NCBI GenBank assembly: GCA_964457775.1
Contig: CAYWEW010000005.1
Coordinates: forward strand, 5,398-69,397
Length of the DNA: 64,000 bases
Direction of reading: 5' to 3'
DNA from: an uncultured Candidatus Saccharibacteria bacterium
GTDB lineage: Bacteria; Patescibacteriota; Minisyncoccia; Phycocordibacterales; UBA5272
Every line of letters begins with the position of its first letter. Position 1 is the stretch's first letter. The notes under the pieces are model-generated. The model saw nothing but the letters and a program-made list of their open reading frames with translations. It had not been told where the DNA came from and searched no databases. This document shows positions 3,173 to 57,481 of this stretch, piece after piece. A program made the position numbers and the translations under genes.

Positions 3173-4144
3173 TTAAAATAATTCACGGATACCTTTTTCT
3201 AGTGACATCTTTGGCTCCCAGTCAAGTTTACTTTTAACTTTTGAGTTATCACCAACAAACCTCTTTGGTTCCTTTCTTGGTTCTATGTGTATAATAGTCG
3301 CTTCGTCGTAATTTTTTTCTGTGGCTATATTTTTTATTAGATGTGCCAGATCTAAGATTTTACTTTCCACACCAGCACATACATTAAAAACTTTACCTCT
3401 AAGTTCATCTTTTTCAAGGTTTTCTAGAAGTTGTAGATTTAAGCTTACAACATCGTATACATGTATAAAATCCCTTGTTTGTTCACCGTCACCACAAATA
3501 GTTACGGGTTGTTTATCTTTTATTTGTTTAATGAATCTACCAATAGCTGGAGCATAACTTCCTGTATCGTGTTGATCTGGACCCCAAACATTAGAATATC
3601 TAATAGATGTTATATTCATCCCATATAACTCAACATAAAGATTACCAAGTTGTTCTTTAATATGTTTACTTAGTGCGTATGGGTTCTCTGGAGCAGGGGT
3701 ATGGGACTCATGTTTAATACCATCAGCATTTCCGTATACCGCAGCAGAACTTGTAATAATTATATTTTGACAATCATTATTTCTAGCGGCTTCAAGTACA
3801 TTAATAGTTCCTTGAATATTTGTTTCAAAAGCTTTTTTTGGTTCATTGACACTGTTTGGTGAACTTATAAAAGCCGCTAAGTGAATAACTGCTTTTGCGT
3901 TTTTAAATATTGGTAAAATATTGTAATAATCTAAAACATTTAACTTGTGTATTTTGTTTTTAATGAAATCATTACTGAAATATTTTTTTAGTATATCATT
4001 GGATACTTCTTCCCCAGTAAATTCGTCAACTAAAATATCTATAATATGTACGTCATACCCTTTATCTAAAAGCGCCTTTGATATATGTCGGCCAATAAAT
4101 CCTGCACCACCCGTAACAATAATTTTTTCTGTTTCTTTTTTCAT
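3173..4144 (-). CDS. NAD-dependent nucleotide-sugar epimerase/dehydratase (SDR family)
   Basis: N-terminal Rossmann motif IIVTGGAGFIGRHI, a YxxxK-type catalytic region, length 323 aa. Confidence 0.85.
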   Translation of the reverse strand: MKKETEKIIVTGGAGFIGRHISKALLDKGYDVHIIDILVDEFTGEEVSNDILKKYFSNDFIKNKIHKLNVLDYYNILPIFKNAKAVIHLAAFISSPNSVNEPKKAFETNIQGTINVLEAARNNDCQNIIITSSAAVYGNADGIKHESHTPAPENPYALSKHIKEQLGNLYVELYGMNITSIRYSNVWGPDQHDTGSYAPAIGRFIKQIKDKQPVTICGDGEQTRDFIHVYDVVSLNLQLLENLEKDELRGKVFNVCAGVESKILDLAHLIKNIATEKNYDEATIIHIEPRKEPKRFVGDNSKVKSKLDWEPKMSLEKGIRELF

Positions 4145-13071: not shown

Positions 13072-13184
13072 TTAGTATTTTTTGATTGATGTATTCAGTA
13101 TTTAATAACATGACAATTAGAGTGTTTTGTGATAGAATAAATCCTATTGTTTTGGTAGTAAAAATAAATTATGCCGTGAGTAGA

Positions 13185-13247
13185 TCGAGAAGCTTGGCTT
13201 CGAAGATGTCAAAAATTAGCAATTTTTTAACCCGGTTGGTAGAATAT
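13185..13247 (+). repeat. Conserved hairpin element upstream of tRNA (copy a)
   Basis: cgagaagcttggcttcgaagatgtcaaaaattagcaattttttaacccggttgg; second copy at 51627..51680 with compensatory base changes in the stem. Confidence 0.55.
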
Positions 13248-13286
13248 TAAAACGTACATGGTCAGCAGGTAGTAGATAGTAAATAT

Positions 13287-13362: not shown

Positions 13363-13421
13363 ATAATAAGCGGAGCTTATTATGGTGATGCTTCAGCAAG
13401 ACAACTGCTTGTCTTGCGACA

Positions 13422-13493
13422 GATTCTAATAGGGGTCGCGAGGTTTATATTTTGAGTTTACGAGGAATAGACCTTGTGACCGAATCTGACAAG
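13422..13493 (+). repeat. tRNA-trailer repeat module (GATTCNAATA-GGGGTCGCGA...GTGACC-GAATC)
   Basis: gattctaataggggtcgcga...cttgtgaccgaatctgacaag; related copies at 33894..33956 and on the minus strand at 50095..50180. Confidence 0.5.
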
Positions 13494-13514
13494 TTTTAGC
13501 CAATACTTCAATTT

Positions 13515-17144: not shown

Positions 17145-19496
17145 ATGAAATTCTCTAAATCATGGCTACAGGATTATATTGTTGAAAAACTTCCAGAAGA
17201 TGGAGTTATTGCTGATACTTTAAATAAAAAAGCATTTGAGGTTGAAGAGGTTATTACACTTTCCAATGATACAGTTTTTGATATTAAAGTTCTTCCAAAT
17301 CGTGCGCATGATGCACTTGGTCACCATGGTATGGCTTATGAACTTTGCTCTTGTTTTGGTTTTACATTTAAAAAAGACCCTCGAAATAAAGTTTTAGAAT
17401 TTACTGACAAACATATCGCATCACCAGCCGTTGTAATTGATGATGAAAAGTCATGTACTCGTTTCTTAAGCATGAGAATTGATAATGTGACAGTGGGTGA
17501 TAGCCCAGAGTGGTTGAAGAATAGATTAGAAGCAATCGGACAACGCAGTATTAATAATATTGTTGACGCAACCAATTATGTACAATTCGCACTCAATAAA
17601 CCAATGCACGCATATGATGTAAGAAGTGTTAAAGGATCACTTCGTGCGCGCTTTGCTAAAACTGGAGAAGCACTCACAACTCTTGATGGTAAAGAATTAA
17701 CTTTGAACGAGAAGACTCTTGTAATTTCTGATGATGAAAAGGTGCTTGGTCTAGCAGGAATAAAAGGGGGTAAATTTAGTGGAATACAACCCGACACTAA
17801 AAGTATTCTTCTTGAAAGTGCTAATTTTGAACCTACACTTATTCGCAAGACATCACAAAGTTATAATATTCACACTGATGCATCAAAGCGTTTTGAAAAC
17901 GGTATAGCAAACTCACTTTCAATTGAAGGGTTGTATATGACCGCTAATTTGATAAAGGAAATTTGTAGTGATGCTAAAGCGAGTGAACCAACAGATATTT
18001 ATCCTGAAAAGGATACAGCTTACTATGTCGGTGTTTCTCTTCTTGAGATAAATGAAATTCTTGGTACTTCTTACTCGGACGACGAGATTAAAAATACTCT
18101 CAATGGCATGTCACTTCCTTTTGAAATAGTTGTTCCAGAAACATATATAGAAGAAACATACAAAACATTAGTAGGGTCAGTATACAAAAACCCTTCAAGT
18201 ATGAGACGTGATGCACCACAAGCCTTTAGTTGTTCTTCACTCATTAGTTATCTATATAAAGGTGTATGGATGCCGAGTCTTTCCGTTGATAAATATGTTT
18301 TTTCAAAAAAGATAACAAAAGATGATTTAAAATTCGGTGACCTTATTTTTACTAATAGTGGGGAAGGAAATATTAGATATGAATCAGTAGAATTTTTGCG
18401 AGGCACAAAAGTACCTGCTGGGGTAGACCATGTTGCTATGTATTGTGGCGATGGAAAAGTTATTCATGCAACGAAAGTTCACGGTGTTGTAGTTATTGAA
18501 ACTCTCGAGGACTTCTCAATTCGTCGTACTATAGTTGGGTATGGAAGAGTAGCTGACAATTTGGATGAGGAAAGATACGTAGTGCGTGTTCCGTCTGTGC
18601 GTTTAGATTTAAGAATCAAGGAAGATTTGGCGGAAGAAATTGGACGTATTATTGGATATGAGAAACTTGTACCAACTTTGCCAAAACTTAATCGTGTCGG
18701 TATTCCACATAAACGTATGTATTATGAAAATAAAATTCGAGAGATTTTAATTTCAAAAGGATTTTCGGAAGTAATAACATACACTTTTGGAAATGAGGGG
18801 GAGGTAGAGATTGTAAAAGGTTTAGCTTATGATAAAGAAAAGTTGCGCAATAATTTGGGTAAGGGTTTGCTACAATCACTTTCCCTTAATATTTACAACG
18901 GACCAGTGCTTGGTCAAAAAATTATTAAGATTTTTGAAATTGGAAACGTGTTCGGAAAAGATTTGGAGGTTAGACACTTATCGCTTGCAATCGATGATGG
19001 CGCCAAGAAGAGTAGTTTTACGGAAGAAATAGATATGATTCTTGCAGAAATAAAAAGAACATTAAATATTAAAGAAATAGAATATCAAACAGTATCTACA
19101 AAACCTTATGTGATTGAAATTGATTTTGATACACTTATTTCAAATCTACCAGAATCATCAATATATGAAGCGCCTACGTTCACGTCTCTCCCTTTGGTTA
19201 ATTACAAACCAGTCTCTGCTTATCCGTTTATTACCCGTGATATTGCTATGTGGGTACCTGATACTGTCACATGGGAAGATATCAATTCTGTTTGTGCTGA
19301 AGTATCTAATCCTCTTGTTACTCGTATTGATATTTTTGATACGTTTTCAAAAGAAATAGAAGGTGTAAAAAAGACATCATACGCCTTTCGTTTAGTATTT
19401 CAAAGTTATGAAAAAACATTAACTGATGATGAAGTGAATATAATGATGGGGGATTATTATCAGGTTTTGAAAGATAGAGGGTACGAAATTAGATAA
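17145..19496 (+). CDS. pheT: Phenylalanine--tRNA ligase beta subunit with an inserted NlpC/P60-like module in the B5 domain
   Basis: B1 and B3/4 (VLPNRAHDALGHHGMAYEL), B5 (LLEINEILGTSYSDDEIKNTLNGMSLPFE ... RYVVRVPSVRLDLRIKEDLAEEIGRIIGYE), core and C-terminal FDX-like domain. A roughly 150-aa insertion at about nt 18147-18600 carries C-S-S-L and DHVAMYCGDGKVIHA motifs. Confidence 0.9.
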   Translation: MKFSKSWLQDYIVEKLPEDGVIADTLNKKAFEVEEVITLSNDTVFDIKVLPNRAHDALGHHGMAYELCSCFGFTFKKDPRNKVLEFTDKHIASPAVVIDDEKSCTRFLSMRIDNVTVGDSPEWLKNRLEAIGQRSINNIVDATNYVQFALNKPMHAYDVRSVKGSLRARFAKTGEALTTLDGKELTLNEKTLVISDDEKVLGLAGIKGGKFSGIQPDTKSILLESANFEPTLIRKTSQSYNIHTDASKRFENGIANSLSIEGLYMTANLIKEICSDAKASEPTDIYPEKDTAYYVGVSLLEINEILGTSYSDDEIKNTLNGMSLPFEIVVPETYIEETYKTLVGSVYKNPSSMRRDAPQAFSCSSLISYLYKGVWMPSLSVDKYVFSKKITKDDLKFGDLIFTNSGEGNIRYESVEFLRGTKVPAGVDHVAMYCGDGKVIHATKVHGVVVIETLEDFSIRRTIVGYGRVADNLDEERYVVRVPSVRLDLRIKEDLAEEIGRIIGYEKLVPTLPKLNRVGIPHKRMYYENKIREILISKGFSEVITYTFGNEGEVEIVKGLAYDKEKLRNNLGKGLLQSLSLNIYNGPVLGQKIIKIFEIGNVFGKDLEVRHLSLAIDDGAKKSSFTEEIDMILAEIKRTLNIKEIEYQTVSTKPYVIEIDFDTLISNLPESSIYEAPTFTSLPLVNYKPVSAYPFITRDIAMWVPDTVTWEDINSVCAEVSNPLVTRIDIFDTFSKEIEGVKKTSYAFRLVFQSYEKTLTDDEVNIMMGDYYQVLKDRGYEIR

Positions 19497-33815: not shown

Positions 33816-33857
33816 AAAATAAAAAAACTAAAGCTTTTGCCTTAGTTTTTTATTTTA

Positions 33858-34150
33858 CGGAGAGGGAGAAAGTGACCTGCGTCACTTTCATGGGGATTCG
33901 AATAGGGGTCGCGAATCTACTTCGAGCAAAGCGAGGCAGATTTGTGACCGAATCCCTCACCCCTCCGCTTTGAAAATAAATTAACTCACTTTTTAAGTGA
34001 GTTAATTTATTTTGCGGTGAGGGAGAAAACCAACCGCTTGGTTTTCGTGGGGATTCGAATAGGCGAATCAGCAGATTCGGTTATTGGAACTAGCGAAACC
34101 CATTCTGACGAGCTTGCGAGGAGGGGTTTTGTGACCGAATCCCCATACTC
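33858..34150 (+). repeat. Two tandem degenerate tRNA-Ser-like units separated by a perfect palindrome
   Basis: Unit A 33858-33968 and unit B 34015-34150 each start cgg(a/t)gagggagaaa plus a hairpin, contain ggggattcgaatagg ... ttttgtgaccgaatccc and end with ..cccctccg or ..ccccatactc. The palindrome is 33972-34014. Confidence 0.5.
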
Positions 34151-34502
34151 AAACCACACTTCAAGGTATACTAAACAAATGAAATCAATTGTAAAAAATC
34201 CTTACCTGGATGCATTGCTTAAGCTAATGCTCCTGTCCGCCATTATTCATATGTTTGTGTTGGTTATTTATTCTGTGTTGAATGGCAATATTTTCTATTT
34301 AAATTTCTTTAAAATTATAAACATCGATTTGTTTTTTCCTCAAATAGTTAATTTGGATTGTTACGGACTTTATTCATTTGTTATTACTATTTGGTTGTAT
34401 ATATTAATTTATTACATTTCAAATATTAAAAATAAAAAATAAGTTATTTAATATAATATTAGCTATACAACCTCCACAATTTAGTGTATTTTGTATATAG
34501 CT

Positions 34503-44443: not shown

Positions 44444-44581
44444 ATTATCCATTTACGTTGTTCGAGCAGTTTGACTGCGAAGATGTCCGAAACTACCAAG
44501 TGTAGGACATGAATCGATTAACTGGAGCAATTTCTGACTTTCGGGCTCATACATACAGTTACATACGAATACAATTCGATT

Positions 44582-45580: not shown

Positions 45581-45624
45581 GAATTAAAAGAGCGACACCT
45601 TTCGGTGTCGCTCTTTTATCTTTT

Positions 45625-45960
45625 GTTCTATCTATAAGCCGAATTCTGTCCATGTGGTTACCCACATTGTGTAATCATGTATCTGGGCGATATTTTACAA
45701 TACCGCTCTAGCGACACTCTCATATTGCTATGAGCACGGTCTTGCACACACGTAAGGATTTAGCCGTTTCAATTTTATCTTTCGATAAACATATTCCCGA
45801 AGGAACCCTAGTCTTTCGACATTGGCGTCACTGCTCGCACCTCTATGATTGCTCACGACGGGTGTTACCCGCTACGATCACTAATTTAAAAGTAATGTGT
45901 TCGGACTTTCCTCTCTCGGTGGTAGTATTTCAACCACAAAGAGCGATTACCCAGTAGAAC
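45625..45960 (-). ncRNA. rnpB: RNase P RNA (bacterial type A-like, reduced)
   Basis: Minus strand reads GAGGAAAGTCCGAACAC (P4), GGGTAACACCCG, GGTGCGAGCAGTGACGCC and 3' ACAGAATTCGGCTTATAG (E. coli-like ACAGAACCCGGCTTATCG). P1 is GTTCTAC/ATAGAAC. A terminator hairpin 45587-45620 lies downstream. Confidence 0.75.
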
Positions 45961-46053
45961 AAAAAAATAATACAACATATTTTACAAAAAAGCAAGTATA
46001 GATACAATTCCACGTGCTTTTATCTGCATTTTTTGTTAGTATGGAGGGATATT

Positions 46054-50037: not shown

Positions 50038-50094
50038 ATCATAAAAATATTCTGAAAAACATACAGAAAGCTGTATGTTTTTTTGTTTTGCATT

Positions 50095-50180
50095 GTCGGT
50101 AAGAATTGGCCACGAAACTACTACACTTCGTTCGAAGTAGTTTCGCGACCCCGTTATTCGATTCCCACATAGAAGCCAAG
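50095..50180 (-). repeat. Palindromic repeat module (GGGAATCGAATAAC-GGGGTCGCGAAACTACTTCGAACGAAG...)
   Basis: Reverse complement matches the tRNA-trailer module (ggggattcgaataggggtcgcgaatctacttcgagcaaag). Contains a roughly 36-nt imperfect palindrome. Confidence 0.5.
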
Positions 50181-50333
50181 CAGTTGGCTTTTTCTTGGGT
50201 ATAACAAAAAAAGCTTTGCATATTTTTGTTGTGCACCCTCATGGTCTCGGAATTTTAGTAATTAGGCTCTGTAATGGTTTTTTGAAAGAAATTGGATAGT
50301 TAGATCTAACCCTCTCGGTCGGCTCATTAATTA

Positions 50334-51002
50334 TTATTTAATAAACTTAAAACTAGAAATTACTCTATTCAGAGTAGGGTCATTCGTTACACTAGTATCT
50401 TTGGGAGGAACTAATGATATTAGATACTCAACATTATTTTTTATTGTGCAATATTCCGTAAAACGAATACTAGAATTTGGTAAATCTTGAATTACATCTT
50501 GTTCTGTAAAATTAATACCATTAATAGATGTTTTGGTAAAAGATTTTCCACCCGCCTTAACACGAGAACAGTCCAGATTTTCGCCAGACATTATATTTAT
50601 CACAAATGAACCCTGAGAGTTTTCCTTTGAGTTAATGGGTTGAAATCTTATCGCATTATCATTTGGTCCGTACATATGTTCAGGTAATTTTGTTCCATCA
50701 ACATAATCTATCTGAAATCCATATTGAGGACTTGCATATGTTTTCCATTTTACATCTTGTGATTCAGTACTCTCAGTTATCACTGAATTTATTTGGCTAT
50801 TTTTTGAAGTGGTCAGTGTTGCTTGAGAATTTTGTACTAACGAAACATTATTAGTAACAGCTTGCTGAGTTACGATGGGTGATGTTTTTTTAAACCAGTG
50901 CCATGTTAATGGATTCCACCACGAAGCAAAAACTTGAGTTGTTAATCCAGTGGTAAGAATAAAAACAAAAGAGATTATTTTAATTTTTTTCATATACTCC
51001 AA
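50334..51002 (-). CDS. Secreted hypothetical protein
   Basis: Signal peptide MKKIKIISFVFILTTGLTTQVFA. Confidence 0.5.
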   Translation of the reverse strand: MEYMKKIKIISFVFILTTGLTTQVFASWWNPLTWHWFKKTSPIVTQQAVTNNVSLVQNSQATLTTSKNSQINSVITESTESQDVKWKTYASPQYGFQIDYVDGTKLPEHMYGPNDNAIRFQPINSKENSQGSFVINIMSGENLDCSRVKAGGKSFTKTSINGINFTEQDVIQDLPNSSIRFTEYCTIKNNVEYLISLVPPKDTSVTNDPTLNRVISSFKFIK

Positions 51003-51074
51003 TGATACCTTACTAACTGGTATTAAGAAAGTGATTTATGAGATTTAGGCCTCACGGTCTGTCTCACATGGTTG

Positions 51075-51146
51075 TGCCCTCGGCGGGAATCGAACCTACA
51101 ATAACTCCTTAGGACGGAGCAGTTATATCCATTTAACTACGAGGGC
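51075..51146 (-). tRNA. tRNA-Arg (anticodon CCU)
   Basis: Minus strand GCCCTCG ... anticodon loop gtCCTaa ... AGGTTCGATTCC ... CGAGGGCA. One A-C mismatch in the T-stem. Confidence 0.75.
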
Positions 51147-51541: not shown

Positions 51542-51612
51542 TTGTTGCATCTTTCGAAGTATTTGTTTTTATGATAGAATCTTAAGGACAGCTATTAGTT
51601 TACAGTTGTTAA

Positions 51613-51632
51613 CATGCTTGGTTAGCTCGAGA
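51613..51632 (+). repeat. Duplicated 5' fragment of tRNA-Phe (acceptor plus D-arm)
   Basis: atgcttggttagctcgag vs the tRNA-Phe 5' end atgcttggatagctcag. Confidence 0.55.
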
Positions 51633-51680
51633 AGCTTGGCTTCGAGGATGTCAAAAGTTAGTAAACTTTTGACCCGGTTG
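51627..51680 (+). repeat. Conserved hairpin element upstream of tRNA (copy b)
   Basis: cgagaagcttggcttcgaggatgtcaaaagttagtaaacttttgacccggttg. Confidence 0.55.
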
Positions 51681-51760
51681 TGAATCAGCAGATTCATGGC
51701 TTGGCCAAAAATAGATTGTTAAAACGTGAATATATAATGTCGGTGGTATAATTAAAATAT

Positions 51761-51833
51761 GCTTGGATAGCTCAGTTGGTAGAGCGCTTCCCTGAAGAGG
51801 AATAGGTCCCCAGTTCGAGCCTGGGTCCAAGCA
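51761..51833 (+). tRNA. tRNA-Phe (anticodon GAA), no encoded CCA
   Basis: GCTTGGATAGCTCAGTTGGTAGAGC ... loop ctGAAga ... CCCAGTTCGAGCCTGGG TCCAAGC A. Extended -10 TGGTATAAT ends 9 nt upstream. Confidence 0.85.
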
Positions 51834-51837
51834 CAAA

Positions 51838-51885
51838 ATACAAAAAGCGATGTCACATGATATCGCTTTTTGTATTTTGTGCTTG
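51838..51885. terminator. Perfect palindrome after tRNA-Phe
   Basis: caaaatacaaaaagcgatgtcacatgatatcgctttttgtattttg. Confidence 0.55.
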
Positions 51886-52061
51886 GACAGCAAGACAGAT
51901 TACTGTCTTGCGGCCGGCTCGAACGAAAAACCGGTCCACGAATTTATTTCAAAAAATAGGGTTCAGTATTTTTTGAAATAAATTTGTCGGTTTTTCTCGG
52001 GGTCGAGGATAGGAGATTTTGTTTGAGTCGTTAGACGAAAAAGAAAATCCCTAGCGGTGAC

Positions 52062-52085
52062 CGAGCCTGGGTCCAAGCATTTTAA
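52062..52085 (+). repeat. Duplicated 3' fragment of tRNA-Phe (T-loop 3' half plus acceptor)
   Basis: ccgagcctgggtccaagca vs the tRNA 3' end ttcgagcctgggtccaagca. Confidence 0.6.
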
Positions 52086-52132
52086 AAAACTCTAAACTGT
52101 GACCAATACTGGCCAAGATAAAATAAAACACC

Positions 52133-52567
52133 CTACATCTGTAGGGTGTCTGAAGATTGTTCAATTCCTGGCTCAACAGGAAGGTCATCTTTGCCAAATA
52201 AATGCATTCTTAGATATCCTGGTCCAGAAGGTGTGCATTTAATGTTTAAAGTAACAGGAATAAAATTGGACTCAAATAATTCATCAAGAGCAGAGTTGAA
52301 TTTCTTAGCTAAGTATTCATCACTTAGCACAAGTGGCACTGGTTTTTTGAAATAAATTTGTATATCGGTTGGTTCACTCAATGAGACAGCTTCAAGTAAA
52401 AATTTTCTCAAGTCTTCTGATGTTATTTCGTAAGCTGGCCTCACGAAAGTAATTTTCAGTGTGACCCCCATAAAAGTATGACCATGACGGAATTTCCATG
52501 AGTCCTGTGGGGTTAATTTACCATCACGTAATTTACGGAACTTTTCTCCAAATGTTTCATCCTTCAT
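52133..52567 (-). CDS. Hypothetical protein
   Basis: ORF only. Confidence 0.4.
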   Translation of the reverse strand: MKDETFGEKFRKLRDGKLTPQDSWKFRHGHTFMGVTLKITFVRPAYEITSEDLRKFLLEAVSLSEPTDIQIYFKKPVPLVLSDEYLAKKFNSALDELFESNFIPVTLNIKCTPSGPGYLRMHLFGKDDLPVEPGIEQSSDTLQM

Positions 52568-54741: not shown

Positions 54742-56886
54742 CTAATTCCATTTGGTAACAATTAATAAATCATCTCCATCTCTTTTTATATATTTCCAAA
54801 TTTCTTCAGTAATAAATGGCATAAATGGATGAATGGTAATTATTTGTTCACGAAGAAGTTTAAGTAATAATGTTTGAGCACTTACTTTGTCTTTATTTTC
54901 AAGAATTCTTGTCTTACGAGTTTCAATTATTTCATCACAAAATACTTTCCAGAAATAATCATAAACTTTTTCTGAGGCTAGATGTAGGCGATAGTTTTCT
55001 AAATCACTCGTTATATCTTTATGCTTTTCTATCCATGCATCATACGTTGCTTGATCTTCATCGTTTAAAGCAACTTCTTTTTCAAAGTCCTCAGTTTTTT
55101 CAAGAACGAATCGTGTTGCATTCCATATCTTATTCGCAAATAATTTGTAGGCCTTAACTTTATCTTCCCCAAGCTTCAAATCATTTCCAGGGCCATTGGC
55201 AACAAGGAGAGACATACGAAGAGCATCGGTCCCATACTTCGTGGATAAGTCACGAGGGTCAAGAGCGTTATTCAATGACTTACTCATTTTGCGACCTTGA
55301 ACATCACGAACCATGCCGTGAAGATAAACGTGTTTAAAAGGGGCTTCGTTAAATACATACATGGAAGCTAGAATCATGCGAGCCACCCAAAAGAAAAGTA
55401 TGTCATGTCCAGTCTCAAGAAGTGTGGTTGGATGAAATGTTTTCATGTCATCAGTATTCTCTGGCCAACCAAGTGTCGAGAATGTCCAAAGGCCTGATGA
55501 GAACCATGTGTCTAATGTATCTTCATCTTGTACCCAACCATCTCCAGTTGGTGGATTAATATCACAATGTATTTCGTCTCCTTTATAATAAACAGGGATA
55601 CGATGGCCATACCAAATTTGACGACTAATACACCAGTCATGCAAGTTTTCAATCCAATGGAAATATATCTTTTCGAAATGTTCAGGAATAATTGTAGTAT
55701 CTTTATTCTCGACAGCTTTTCTCATCAAATTTTTGAGAGTCGTTTCTACTCCAAAATGTTTAAAAGGTTTGTTCACTGCAATCCACCATTGTAACTTTGG
55801 TAATGGTTCAATTACACCGCCAGTACGTTCAGCTGTTGGAATATTTTGAGTTACATCTTCTTCACTAATAATTAAATTATTTTCTTTTAACCAGTTCACA
55901 ATATATTCACGTGCATCCGCTACTTTTTTGCCGTTCAACTCTTCATTTGCTAGTCCATACATCTTAGCGTATTCGTTAATCACTTGTTTCACAGGCAAGT
56001 TGTGGCGTTCTTTGATTTCCCAGTCTATTTGACTATGTGCCGGCGTTACACCGAGCGCTCCTGTTCCAAAATCTTTTTCTACTGCACTATCAGCAATAAC
56101 TTTTATTGTAATAGGACATCCTGCGAACACGACATTGTATTCTTTGCCAACATATTCTTTATATCTATCATCATCTGGGTGCACAGCAACTGCCACATCA
56201 CCAACTTTTGTTTCTGGTCGAGTAGATGAAATAGCAATAGGGAAGTCAGTGCTATATTTGAATGTATACATTTTTCCTTTTCTTTCTTCAGATACTGTTT
56301 CATCATCACTGATGGTGGTTTGACCTTTCGGGTCCCAGTTCACAATTCTTTGTCCACGATAAATTAATCCATCGTCATACATTTTCTTAAACATGGTCCT
56401 AACTGCGAGATTTCTTTTATCATCGAGTGTGAATGCGAGTCTTGACCAATCTAAAGACGCTCCCATTATTTTAGATTGTGAGATTATTGTCTTTTGGCTT
56501 TCAAGGGCGAATTCATTAATACGTTTTAGCATTTCTTCACGTCCGATGTCGTGGCGAGATTTTCCTTCATCTTTATATATTTTCTTTTCTACAACAGATT
56601 GAGTGGCAATAGCAGCATGGTCTGTTCCAGGAAGCCATAATGTCTTATATCCTGCCATGCGTTTATATCTAATGAGTGTGTCTTGTATAGCAAGCATAAT
56701 AGCGTGGCCAGTATGCAGTGTCCCAGTTACATTCGGTGGGGGAAGAACAATAGAGTATGATTCTTTTCTTTCACCAGGTAAATTGTTCGGATTGAAATAA
56801 CCACTCTTTTCCCACATATCATAGAGAGATGATTCAACTGTTTCTGCATTGAAAGGTTTATTTAGTTGTTCTGGGACTTGTTTCAT
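54742..56886 (-). CDS. valS: Valine--tRNA ligase (lacking C-terminal coiled-coil)
   Basis: PPPNVTGTLHTGHA (HIGH) and GRKMSKSLNN (KMSKS). Class I editing-type synthetase core. Confidence 0.85.
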   Translation of the reverse strand: MKQVPEQLNKPFNAETVESSLYDMWEKSGYFNPNNLPGERKESYSIVLPPPNVTGTLHTGHAIMLAIQDTLIRYKRMAGYKTLWLPGTDHAAIATQSVVEKKIYKDEGKSRHDIGREEMLKRINEFALESQKTIISQSKIMGASLDWSRLAFTLDDKRNLAVRTMFKKMYDDGLIYRGQRIVNWDPKGQTTISDDETVSEERKGKMYTFKYSTDFPIAISSTRPETKVGDVAVAVHPDDDRYKEYVGKEYNVVFAGCPITIKVIADSAVEKDFGTGALGVTPAHSQIDWEIKERHNLPVKQVINEYAKMYGLANEELNGKKVADAREYIVNWLKENNLIISEEDVTQNIPTAERTGGVIEPLPKLQWWIAVNKPFKHFGVETTLKNLMRKAVENKDTTIIPEHFEKIYFHWIENLHDWCISRQIWYGHRIPVYYKGDEIHCDINPPTGDGWVQDEDTLDTWFSSGLWTFSTLGWPENTDDMKTFHPTTLLETGHDILFFWVARMILASMYVFNEAPFKHVYLHGMVRDVQGRKMSKSLNNALDPRDLSTKYGTDALRMSLLVANGPGNDLKLGEDKVKAYKLFANKIWNATRFVLEKTEDFEKEVALNDEDQATYDAWIEKHKDITSDLENYRLHLASEKVYDYFWKVFCDEIIETRKTRILENKDKVSAQTLLLKLLREQIITIHPFMPFITEEIWKYIKRDGDDLLIVTKWN

Positions 56887-56944: not shown

Positions 56945-57481
56945 ATGCTTACAAAACAGTCAAAGATTTTAAAATCAGGTTCGAAGAAAAATATCGAAAT
57001 TATTACCAAAAAAATTACGAAGAAAAACGTAAAAATGGAAACGCATGCAAAACCATTACCAGACCATCATTTTAAAGTGGTGAAAGTAAAGCGCGGTGTT
57101 GCTGGACTCGGTCTTTTCGCAGGAGAGAATATCAAGAAAGGGGAATTGATTATAGAATATATTGGGAATATTTTAAATAAAGAAGAAGCAGACAAAAAAA
57201 CAACCAGCCAATATCTTTTCGAAGTGACTCGTAATAAAACAATTGACGGAACACCTAGATGGAATGTTGCACGTTATTGTAATCATGCTTGTGAGGAAGC
57301 GGCAAATTCCGAAAGTGAGATTAAGAAAGGGCGTGTGTTCATTAAAGCTATTAAGAATATAAAAGAAGGGGAAGAAATTTGTTATGACTACGGAGAAGAA
57401 TTCGTGAAGGAGCATATTGGTCATCATGGATGCAGATGTGCCGCAAAAAATCATAGTTACGGAGCATTATCTAGTAAGTAG
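56945..57481 (+). CDS. SET-domain protein (lysine methyltransferase-like)
   Basis: GxG region VKRGVAGLGLFAGENIKKGELIIEYIG, conserved Tyr (QYLFEV), NH.C motif (RYCNHACEEAAN), EL..DY motif (EEICYDYG), and a post-SET Cys cluster (HHGCRCA). Confidence 0.8.
   Translation: MLTKQSKILKSGSKKNIEIITKKITKKNVKMETHAKPLPDHHFKVVKVKRGVAGLGLFAGENIKKGELIIEYIGNILNKEEADKKTTSQYLFEVTRNKTIDGTPRWNVARYCNHACEEAANSESEIKKGRVFIKAIKNIKEGEEICYDYGEEFVKEHIGHHGCRCAAKNHSYGALSSK

Follow-up and report, generated by a model that had tools for sequence, protein, structure and literature searches.

How an intact tRNA gene has come to lie between copies of its own two ends is the question raised by the tRNA-Phe locus of a 64,000-nt stretch of contig CAYWEW010000005.1 (assembly GCA_964457775.1, from an uncultured Candidatus Saccharibacteria bacterium), the whole of which is referred to here as the window. 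Our analysis indicated that the two elements on either side of this gene belong to a large family, apparently undescribed so far, of small non-coding hairpins that are located at both ends of tRNA genes in the ultra-small bacteria of the candidate phyla radiation (CPR, or Patescibacteria) and copy the end of the tRNA concerned. The two module types are named here the upstream element (UE) and the downstream element (DE). The interpretation that we tentatively favour, as possible rather than probable, is that UE and DE insert specifically at tRNA ends, as non-autonomous modules that are independent of each other and would be mobilised in trans, the DE by way of a folded attachment site.

Anatomy of the tRNA-Phe locus and its variation among relatives

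The tRNA-Phe (GAA) gene at positions 51761-51833 (+) is complete and has no encoded CCA. It was called by both ARAGORN and Rfam (with its end at 51833 or 51834) and scored 65.6 bits against RF00005, for which the gathering score is 29, as a bacterial tRNA gene does. The UE extends over positions 51611-51760 and the DE over 51880-52079. At the left boundary of the UE, about 145 nt upstream of the gene, the sequence AACATGCTTGGTTAGCTC (51611-51628, +) matches AATATGCTTGGATAGCTC (51756-51773) at 16 of 18 positions and represents a direct repeat of the tRNA-Phe leader together with nucleotides 1-13. The right boundary of the DE is formed by CGAGCCTGGGTCCAAGCA, which is found at 51816-51833 within the gene and again at 52062-52079 (+) without a single difference (18/18); this DE 3' arm is a sense copy of tRNA-Phe nucleotides 56-73. 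A second, decayed 3' copy, GTGACCAATACTGGCCAAGA at 52099-52118 (+), consists of a decayed core end and 3' arm and represents the relic of an older DE end. The chance expectation for an 18-mer repeat within 900 nt is about 1e-5 and the layout is repeated at other tRNAs of the window; the repeat pattern at tRNA-Phe thus far exceeds chance. Two further kinds of similarity are of a different nature. The third occurrence of TGCTTGGAC, at 51880-51888, is the right arm of a palindrome and corresponds to the tRNA-Phe 3' end as its inverted complement; the 5' end is not copied there. The GCTTGG strings within GAAGCTTGGCTTC (51631-51643) and GGCTTGGCC (51698-51706) are constant parts of the UE and not tRNA-Phe copies, because GAAGCTTGGCTTC recurs before tRNA-Thr, tRNA-Leu, tRNA-Ile and others and GGCTTGGCC recurs in the UE of a tRNA-Cys (locus L059).

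Upstream of the gene, two extended -10 promoter-like boxes were found. The distal one, TGATAGAAT at 51572-51580 (+), now reads into the UE. A homologous box, TATGATAGTAT, is situated 14 nt before tRNA-Phe in the related locus L020, which carries no modules, and the same box precedes the UEs in the related loci L060 and L143; judged from this comparison, the distal box is the ancestral tRNA-Phe promoter. The left repeat of the UE is followed by a hairpin resembling a kink-turn (k-turn), CGA-[GAAGC TTG GCTTC]-GAG-GA-T (hairpin 1, 51628-51649, +), with covariation in its 5-bp stem and flanks that vary little or not at all. Hairpin 2 comes next (GTCAAAAGTT AGTA AACTTTTGAC, 51650-51673, +), and then a tail (51674-51760, +) composed of CCGGTTG, hairpin 3 (TGAATC AGC AGATTCA), GGCTTGGCCAAAAATA and the proximal promoter-like box TGGTATAAT (51744-51752), which ends 8 nt before the gene. 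This tail is shared with the first UE (UE-a) of L060 and with the UE of the L059 tRNA-Cys.

Downstream, the gene is followed by a terminator-like perfect palindrome designated X (51834-51879, +), orthologous to that of L060. Its arms extend into the 3' acceptor strand of tRNA-Phe and into the antisense arm of the DE, giving 31-nt arms (51825-51855 and 51858-51888) with 97% complementarity. The DE proper begins with the first part of its 5' arm, TGCTTGGAC (51880-51888, +), antisense to tRNA-Phe nucleotides 65-73, and continues with hairpin P2 (GCAAGACAG ATTA CTGTCTTGC, 51890-51911, +), the stem sequence of which equals that of P2 in the tRNA-Thr DE at 13398-13419. The second part of the 5' arm (antiT), CCGGCTCGAAC at 51914-51924 (+), is antisense to nucleotides 54-64, that is, to the T-loop and the 3' strand of the T-stem, with one base missing, and pairs with 52062-52070 in the predicted fold. 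A long AT-rich hairpin (51925-51998, +), with 21-nt palindromic arms at 51938-51987, is a recurrent optional insert of the CGAAAAAGCGGTCTACGAAAT... type, which was also seen in a DE of another genome (L026:6092-6208). The core of the Phe DE (51999-52061, +) is a divergent copy consisting of GGGGTCGAGGA, hairpin P4 and GCGGTGAC. No credible open reading frame (ORF) was detected in the 228-nt insert between the tRNA-Phe 3' repeats. The outer limit of the inserted block is marked by an ancestral terminator (52126-52151, unstranded) that is shared with relatives: its homologues lie directly 3' of tRNA-Phe in L020 and beyond the DE in L060.

A preliminary description of this locus, made from the letters of the window, had reported an intact tRNA-Phe between pieces of itself, with an extended -10 promoter, hairpins and palindromes around it, and in this it was right (the structures lie at 51744-51752, 51825-51888 and 51938-51987). 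The upstream copy of the acceptor and D-arm exists, the 16-mer given there matching at 14 of 16 positions, and so does the downstream copy of the 3' half, at 18 of 18 positions rather than 19 of 19, as the preceding base differs (t vs c). The antisense arm and the conserved core do not appear in that description. Its suggestion that the downstream hypothetical genes are remnants of an islet found no support in the two ORFs examined: the first of them, the 144-aa ORF at 52133-52567, is a conserved neighbour (44% identity in L060), and no island marker was found in the 277-aa ORF.

The 73-nt tRNA-Phe sequence is identical in the window, L020, L060 and L143, and the surroundings of the gene differ in all four. 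In L020 the promoter is followed by 14 nt and the tRNA without any UE, and CCA and the terminator follow directly without a DE. L143 has one UE and no DE, the window has one UE and one DE plus the relic, and L060, the closest relative (a neighbouring protein is 83% identical), has two tandem UEs and one DE with further decayed 3' copies such as GAGCTTGGGCCCAAGCA. The modules lie between two common landmarks, the promoter that follows a 107-aa gene and the terminator ahead of the convergent 144-aa gene. As an identical tRNA-Phe occurs in four module combinations, the modules must have been gained, lost, stacked and reshuffled independently. Furthermore, the window and L060 have orthologous X and arms but entirely different P2 and core, which implies that modules have been exchanged. 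The P2 and P4 types are common to different genomes and different tRNAs and are only weakly associated with either; concerted evolution within genomes and strict co-inheritance with one tRNA were both rejected on the weakness of their signals. Comparison with relatives, as the preliminary description had proposed, thus yielded an empty site (L020) and a site with the UE only (L143). Its idea of a small tRNA-carrying or tRNA-targeting element holds insofar as an insertion type associated with tRNAs is concerned. A single nested cassette (UE-tRNA-DE) that carries the tRNA was rejected, since UE and DE occur separately and vary independently on an identical tRNA-Phe.

Sister copies in the window and in other CPR genomes

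The search for the same layout at other tRNAs, likewise proposed earlier, was positive at tRNA-Thr, tRNA-Ser and a displaced tRNA-Arg element in the window as well as in CPR loci elsewhere. Altogether the window contains five DEs and three UEs. The tRNA-Thr gene is preceded by a UE (13171-13262, +) the body of which comes after a copy of the tRNA-Thr 5' end and shares the identical 18-mer CGAGAAGCTTGGCTTCGA with the Phe UE body, and it is followed by a DE (13382-13504, +; 93 bits) with the same core as elsewhere in the family. Two tandem DEs follow tRNA-Ser (33854-33972 and 34011-34159, +; 109.8 and 50.4 bits). The DE at 50085-50245 (−, unit 50085-50206; 66.9 bits) has arms that match the T-loop and T-stem of tRNA-Arg(CCT) at 51074-51146, from which it is separated by a 222-aa ORF (50334-51002, −); a decayed fragment of the tRNA-Arg 3' end, GAGGGTGCA, and an X hairpin come before it (50207-50245). 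In L020 and L060 the DE lies directly 3' of tRNA-Arg(CCT) and the ORF is absent, and thus the ORF looks like a single-gene insertion at the tRNA-Arg 3' end. Its product is secreted-looking, with a weak match to PsbP_2. The segment consisting of tRNA-Arg(CCT) and its DE was also found inverted, being on the + strand in L060 (1255-1327) and on the − strand in the window (51074-51146) and in L020; the sense and antisense copies of tRNA ends may serve as substrates for such inversions. An orphan UE-like element, with the k-turn-like hairpin and hairpin 2, is located at 44448-44513 (+), where its neighbours are typA/bipA and a DUF192 gene and no tRNA is near.

When one genome per species was scanned with the pattern AGGGGTCGCGA-N20-50-TGTGACCGAR, 59 loci were obtained. 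Fifty-five of these came from CPR metagenome-assembled genomes labelled as Nomurabacteria, Paceibacterota, Parcubacteria, 'Saccharibacteria' and Gracilibacteria, and the other four were chance matches in high-GC genomes. A covariance model built from 49 units recovered four DEs in the window, to which a run with the filters off added the 5' half of the divergent Phe DE; its yield from 398 kb of the CPR loci was 89 DEs. A DE starting between −4 and 177 nt downstream on the same strand was found for 68 of the 103 tRNAs in these loci, a proportion that is inflated because the loci were chosen for having a DE. The tRNAs concerned represent at least 15 species, among them isoacceptors for Lys, Leu, Arg, Trp, Pro, Cys, Ser, Gln, Val, Met, Thr, Glu, Gly and Phe. 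Second tandem units were frequent, and the outer copies were more decayed. The UEs precede tRNAs for Thr, Phe, Leu, Cys, Lys, Ser and Ile, at times in tandem; a metagenome scan with a degenerate UE pattern gave 120 matches, of which seven were true UEs and most of the others chance matches in high-GC ORFs. A DE-like module in an upstream position was seen at L011:520-790, where a partial copy of tRNA-Gln, comprising the 5' part up to and including the anticodon arm, is fused to a DE-type core and a 3' fragment of the T-stem, the whole lying directly upstream of the real tRNA-Gln. When the tRNA-Phe locus was compared with Rfam 15 in gathering-threshold and E-value scans, only the tRNA scored above threshold, and the sub-threshold matches were to generic hairpins of the miRNA type. 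No description of either module was found in the full-text literature searched, the coverage of which is incomplete, so that an earlier description is possible.

In L022, L057 and L052, an island separates the tRNA from its DE, and a decayed copy of the tRNA 3' end stands before X. In L022 a 3-kb island between tRNA-Leu(CAA) and the DE contains an apparently frameshifted Phage_CRI gene, encoding a G2P rolling-circle initiator (751-1790, −), which points to an inovirus-like or single-stranded DNA (ssDNA) replicon remnant in a CPR genome. The island of L057 carries a large serine recombinase. In L052, about 190 nt comprising the tRNA-Leu end, X, the DE and 25 nt beyond it are duplicated near-perfectly (100-420 and 3465-3757) around a 3.2-kb cargo, and this duplication is consistent with a Campbell-type integration via the DE region. 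The possibility that the DE is the right end of inovirus-like ssDNA prophages was not upheld, as the other cargos are unrelated (the serine recombinase island and GNAT/ASCH genes). Since the cargo is located upstream of the decayed tRNA copy and X, the DE predates the cargo.

These islands bear on a more familiar explanation. With the integrases of genomic islands, prophages and tycheposon-type arrays that target tRNA genes, the attachment (att) sites attL and attR are duplications, the gene is regenerated, events stack and the outer copies decay. The DE behaves similarly: a direct repeat of the tRNA 3' end (T-loop to discriminator) flanks its insert, the gene is intact, and the units stack and decay outwards. 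The elements could be ordinary scars of integrase islands or prophages in the tRNA 3' end that were later deleted, leaving attR-proximal DNA and a displaced tRNA 3' fragment. The repeat has the classic att geometry, and the islands with decayed tRNA 3' copies (L022, L057, L052 and the 222-aa ORF of the window) are real. However, scars would be expected to have ragged, unrelated content, whereas the DEs are complete units of about 120 nt (inserts of 120-230 nt) with one non-coding architecture and core at at least 15 tRNA species instead of a single target. Moreover, neither the antisense copy of the tRNA segment within the DE nor the existence of a second module type acting at the tRNA 5' end is explained, and no integrase was present in the insert or among the 49 window ORFs scanned against Pfam. 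The islands lie upstream of an X and DE that were already in place, and this marks the DE as a separate entity. We therefore give scars of this kind little credence. The integrase-type relic invoked in the preliminary description survives in one respect, an att-like repeat that leaves the gene intact, and fails as a one-off event, for the conserved unit recurs in dozens of CPR genomes.

Some other features of the window are recorded here. The class A RNase P RNA (45619-45962, −) is divergent, scoring 107 bits at an Rfam threshold of 100. The PheRS beta chain (17145-19496, +) has an NlpC/P60 peptidase-like domain (residues 358-457) between B3_4 and B5, an unusual fusion. A gene for a 178-aa SET-domain protein (56945-57481, +) adjoins that of a class I aminoacyl-tRNA synthetase (54742-56886), in which a tRNA-synt_1 domain and a partial match to the LeuRS editing domain were detected.

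Fold and pairing of the modules

In the family as a whole, the DE reads 5' to 3' as X, a first antisense segment complementary to tRNA nucleotides 66-74, GA-P2-GU, a second antisense segment complementary to nucleotides 54-65, TCGAAT-AGGGGTCGCGA, P4, TTGTGACCGARY and a sense copy of tRNA nucleotides 59-73 (the repeat starting at nucleotide 56 or 59). The core, TCGAATAGGGGTCGCGA…TTGTGACCGAAT, is near-invariant, the family consensus being TCGAATAGGGGTCGCGA-P4-TTGTGACCGARY. P2 is a 9-bp stem with a CYGC loop, and it covaries in the sets of both 49 and 89 DEs; the outer part of P4, of which at least six sequence types exist, also covaries strongly. An uninterrupted helix is made up of GGUC/GACC, a conserved G.U/C-G/G.U triplet and P4, with GAAUAGG bulging from it. 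For the Phe DE the predicted fold is a rod made up of an acceptor-like stem, P2, a T-like stem, the extra AT-rich hairpin and the core hairpin, and it was equally strong with RNA parameters (z = -9.4) and with DNA parameters (z = -11.3). Mini-hairpins of the GCGAAGC type, which are unusually stable as DNA, recur and speak for a DNA-level entity. A k-turn in the DE core (GCGA/UGUGA) was rejected, as the register is one nucleotide off and the pairing of the columns is G.U/C-G/G.U, for which A-U is the sole common alternative. The same was true of a self-cleaving ribozyme with a hammerhead-type three-way junction, for which the GA and GU linkers lack the necessary length and no Rfam ribozyme gave a score.

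The DE arms vary with the adjacent tRNA. In 59 tRNA-DE pairs, nucleotides 60-73 of the 3' arm were an exact copy of the adjacent tRNA in 25 cases, with a mean of 11.3 matches out of 14 compared with 7.4 for non-cognate tRNAs. The antisense T segment reached a mean of 9.4 out of 12 (7.4 in the control), and the antisense acceptor segment was exact in 11 of 59 DEs. Where the tRNA acceptor stem contains G.U pairs, the DE 5' arm was the Watson-Crick complement of the 3' strand and not a copy of the 5' strand in all five informative cases. Consequently, the DE holds inverted and direct copies of the tRNA 3' end, not a duplicated tRNA. A group I or bulge-helix-bulge intron and a split or permuted tRNA were rejected, the tRNA being complete and the DE having no anticodon arm and an antisense 5' arm. 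The junction of the core with the 3' arm is modular, consisting of a constant ...GACCGARY after which the tRNA sequence continues from nucleotide 59; even where positions 59-60 of the T-loop are not purine-pyrimidine, the constant CGARY opens the 3' arm and the tRNA sequence takes over from nucleotide 59.

The statistics of pairing are DNA-like. At the variable helix positions (two conserved G.U columns and one U.G column excluded), we counted 1122 Watson-Crick pairs, about 17 G.U and 16 A.C, so the excess of G.U expected of a selected RNA is absent from the variable DE helices. The X palindromes of 44 loci contained 24 mismatches in 830 pairs (97% perfect), were essentially perfect also at non-functional positions, and ran 9-12 nt into the tRNA in 12 cases. 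The G.U pairs of the tRNAs are resolved to Watson-Crick pairs in the DE arms. Such figures could arise without any dedicated enzyme, by template switching during replication (palindrome extension and quasi-palindrome correction) around terminator hairpins next to highly transcribed tRNA genes, combined with ectopic gene conversion by which hairpin modules would spread from locus to locus. Perfect palindromes that extend out of the terminator into the tRNA and take in the discriminator and the bases after it, exactly Watson-Crick arms, equal frequencies of G.U and A.C in variable stems and the shuffling of modules between loci would all fit. On the other hand, this process leaves unexplained the near-invariant, non-palindromic core, the fixed place of P2 between nucleotides 65 and 66 and the constant junction GACCGARY, as well as a UE without an antisense arm and identical modules in different species. 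We give it very little credence.

The UE has a different design. Its order is the leader with tRNA nucleotides 1 to about 13, CGA-[5-bp stem, UUG loop]-GAA/GAG-GA-U, the 10-bp hairpin 2, a variable tail and an extended -10-like box near the tRNA. The start rule (leader and about nucleotides 1-13, then CGAG...) held for 18 UEs at Thr, Leu, Cys, Lys, Ser, Ile and Phe tRNAs. CGA-[5 bp]-GAA/GAG-GA, the sequence signature of a k-turn, was retained in 17 of them, L060 having CAA, around stems as different as GAAGC/GCTTC, GCAGC/GCTGC, GAGAC/GTCTC, GTAAC/GTTAC, GGAGC/GCTCC, GTAGC/GCTAC and GCAGT/ACTGC. Changes on both sides were found at 12 of 15 pairs (4/5 in hairpin 1 and 8/10 in hairpin 2), and the covariation score was 0.475 as compared with 0.194 for shuffles, none of 500 shuffles reaching 0.475. 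In L060, a tandem repeat (GGGACTA)n lies between the promoter and UE-a (2040-2085), and another, (GAAGAGC)n, replaces the k-turn hairpin of the second UE, UE-b (2275-2300). The standard k-turn has a Watson-Crick C stem, a 3-nt bulge and tandem G.A and A.G pairs (PMC5061560). Like Kt-7, the U4 5' stem-loop and the box C/D k-turns bound by L7Ae or YbxF (PMC5061560), the UE motif combines a Watson-Crick stem, a 3-nt bulge (GAA/GAG) and G-A opposite G-A; unlike the standard motif, it is placed in a leader that starts with a copy of tRNA nucleotides 1-13, and its 3b.3n pair would be U.C. With this putative k-turn and a promoter of its own, the UE may act, at least in part, as a transcribed mobile promoter or leader.

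Insertion modules or functional RNA

The reading of the modules as insertion elements starts from what was observed: their anatomy, the existence of the family, its specificity for tRNA ends, variation in presence and absence, stacking, outward decay, shuffling of modules and DNA-like pairing statistics. From these we infer a single-strand recombination mechanism, an enzyme and mobilisation in trans. A single-stranded DE would fold into a rod that restores the duplex of the tRNA-gene 3' end, interrupted by the constant bulge, the conserved G.T pairs and two variable hairpins. The DE would enter at the tRNA 3' end by recombination with this folded sense/antisense hairpin, and the gene would stay intact because a direct repeat of the abutting tRNA end forms the boundary of each module. 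Single-strand integration at the 3' end predicts the order tRNA[A]-X-A'-core-[A], which is the order observed; the newest DE unit would lie next to the tRNA, and older units would be pushed outward and decay.

Two groups of known elements offer partial parallels. Integron attC and CTXphi attP(+) are folded single-strand sites whose structure is more conserved than their sequence, with R and L boxes or dif, and their arrays grow target-proximally. The DE likewise has two inverted target-like copies that pair into an imperfect hairpin, with conserved unpaired and mismatched bases (the invariant GAATAGG bulge and the G.T/C-G/G.T pairs) and a variable terminal hairpin (P4), and its layout of target, insert, inverted copy, core and target copy is as predicted for integration. 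Unlike these sites, the DE has arms that derive from the end of a tRNA gene instead of R/L boxes or dif (no GTTRRRY or dif-like consensus was visible by eye in the arms, a formal scan not having been made), and its units contain no cassette ORF. The likeness is a formal one. Repeats of the repetitive extragenic palindrome (REP), bacterial interspersed mosaic element (BIME) and miniature inverted-repeat transposable element (MITE) types are short, non-coding, multi-copy, hairpin-forming and intergenic, with subtype families within a lineage. UE and DE share all these properties, including lineage-shared subtypes (89 DEs in 398 kb and five in the window), and differ in being located almost only at tRNA ends, in a single orientation, with flanking repeats of 13-18 nt of tRNA and without terminal inverted repeats, the DE unit ends (X... 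and ...GTGACCGAAT) not being inverted repeats of each other.

Several observations weigh against insertion modules, and some of them favour a functional cis-acting RNA instead. In this alternative the UE would be a 5' leader with a k-turn binding an L7Ae-type protein and the DE a 3' trailer imitating the acceptor and T-arm, both serving the processing or quality control of pre-tRNA; the DE might be a minihelix recognised by RNase P or RNase Z that defines the trailer, or an antisense switch that inactivates read-through transcripts. The k-turn signature of the UE is that of an RNA motif, and the conserved G.U pairs of the DE (GCG/UGU), with A-U as the only common alternative, are RNA-like. The near-invariant core, with its unpaired nucleotides and two G.U pairs, and the identical P4 types kept across many species would also fit purifying selection on function. 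The DEs of tRNA-Cys directly follow the tRNA without an intervening terminator and are probably transcribed. Further arguments for RNA are that P2, P4 and the UE hairpins covary, that the modules are strictly oriented, always on the tRNA strand and within or beside the transcription unit, and that promoters precede the UE. Other points tell against insertion modules from the side of DNA: no recombinase, transposase or HUH enzyme was found in the 49 window ORFs scanned against Pfam (48 of the 60 ORFs of at least 110 aa), neither an excised nor a circular form was observed, and the viral contigs scanned yielded only two chance matches in high-GC DNA, on which account a phage origin was rejected. 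How one core family acquired arms for at least 15 different tRNAs is unexplained.

The resemblance of the DE to part of a tRNA deserves comparison with tRNA-like RNA domains, such as those of transfer-messenger RNA (tmRNA), the MALAT1-associated small cytoplasmic RNA (mascRNA), viral tRNA-like structures and the bacterial Y RNA YrlA (PMC4201824). In its predicted fold, the Phe DE would likewise place an acceptor-like stem on a T-like stem and end at the discriminator, with a simple hairpin in place of the tRNA body, which would suit a functional RNA. Unlike such domains, each DE mimics its own neighbouring tRNA and not one tRNA type, and it has no T-loop (UUCRANY with a 5-bp stem), since positions 54-60 are paired to the antisense arm and the core takes the place of the loop. 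The acceptor-like pairing is mostly lost, its 5' arm being exact only in the 11 of 59 DEs mentioned above, and the tRNA G.U pairs are not reproduced. The modules are also facultative: about one-third of the tRNAs have no DE, orthologues differ in occupancy, an identical tRNA-Phe exists without either module, and tandem and decaying copies occur. A terminator-like hairpin (X) usually separates the tRNA from the DE. If the two were transcribed together, the predicted minimum-energy fold (-161.9 kcal/mol, z = -14.7) would misfold the tRNA, as the DE would unzip it by a strand swap in which the tRNA 3' half finds its partner in the DE 5' arm, and the DE 3' arm in turn pairs with the tRNA 5' strand. 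Together with G.U being no commoner than A.C in the variable stems, these features make a functional RNA rather unlikely in our judgement. An insertion-type element associated with tRNAs, as the preliminary description had suggested, was favoured over a normal leader and trailer.

UE and DE extend known kinds of sequence, namely att-type duplications of tRNA ends and hairpin repeat elements. That they stand for something new, either a class of tRNA-end-specific element with a folded replica of its target or a tRNA-specific antisense or decoy at the RNA level coupled to k-turn ribonucleoprotein control of tRNA maturation in CPR bacteria, we consider doubtful. In the first case the element could enter and leave tRNA genes without breaking them, and either case would be a mechanism undescribed for any known mobile element or tRNA-processing pathway. 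If the modules are mobile, they would be gene-less elements that use essential tRNA genes as safe landing sites, carry both strands of the target and rebuild the gene with each insertion, and they would link tRNA-targeting islands, folded sites of the integron and CTX type, and MITEs. Should they be functional RNAs, lineage-specific leader and trailer domains, one of them with a k-turn, would be present at most tRNA genes of a major, little understood radiation, which would point to unrecognised steps or factors of tRNA biogenesis in organisms with very reduced RNase sets. In both cases, UE and DE account for tRNA-fragment 'pseudogenes' and for oddities of assembly and annotation around CPR tRNAs, they mark hot spots of island integration and segment inversion, and the core TCGAATAGGGGTCGCGA…TTGTGACCGA provides a compact marker of the lineage.

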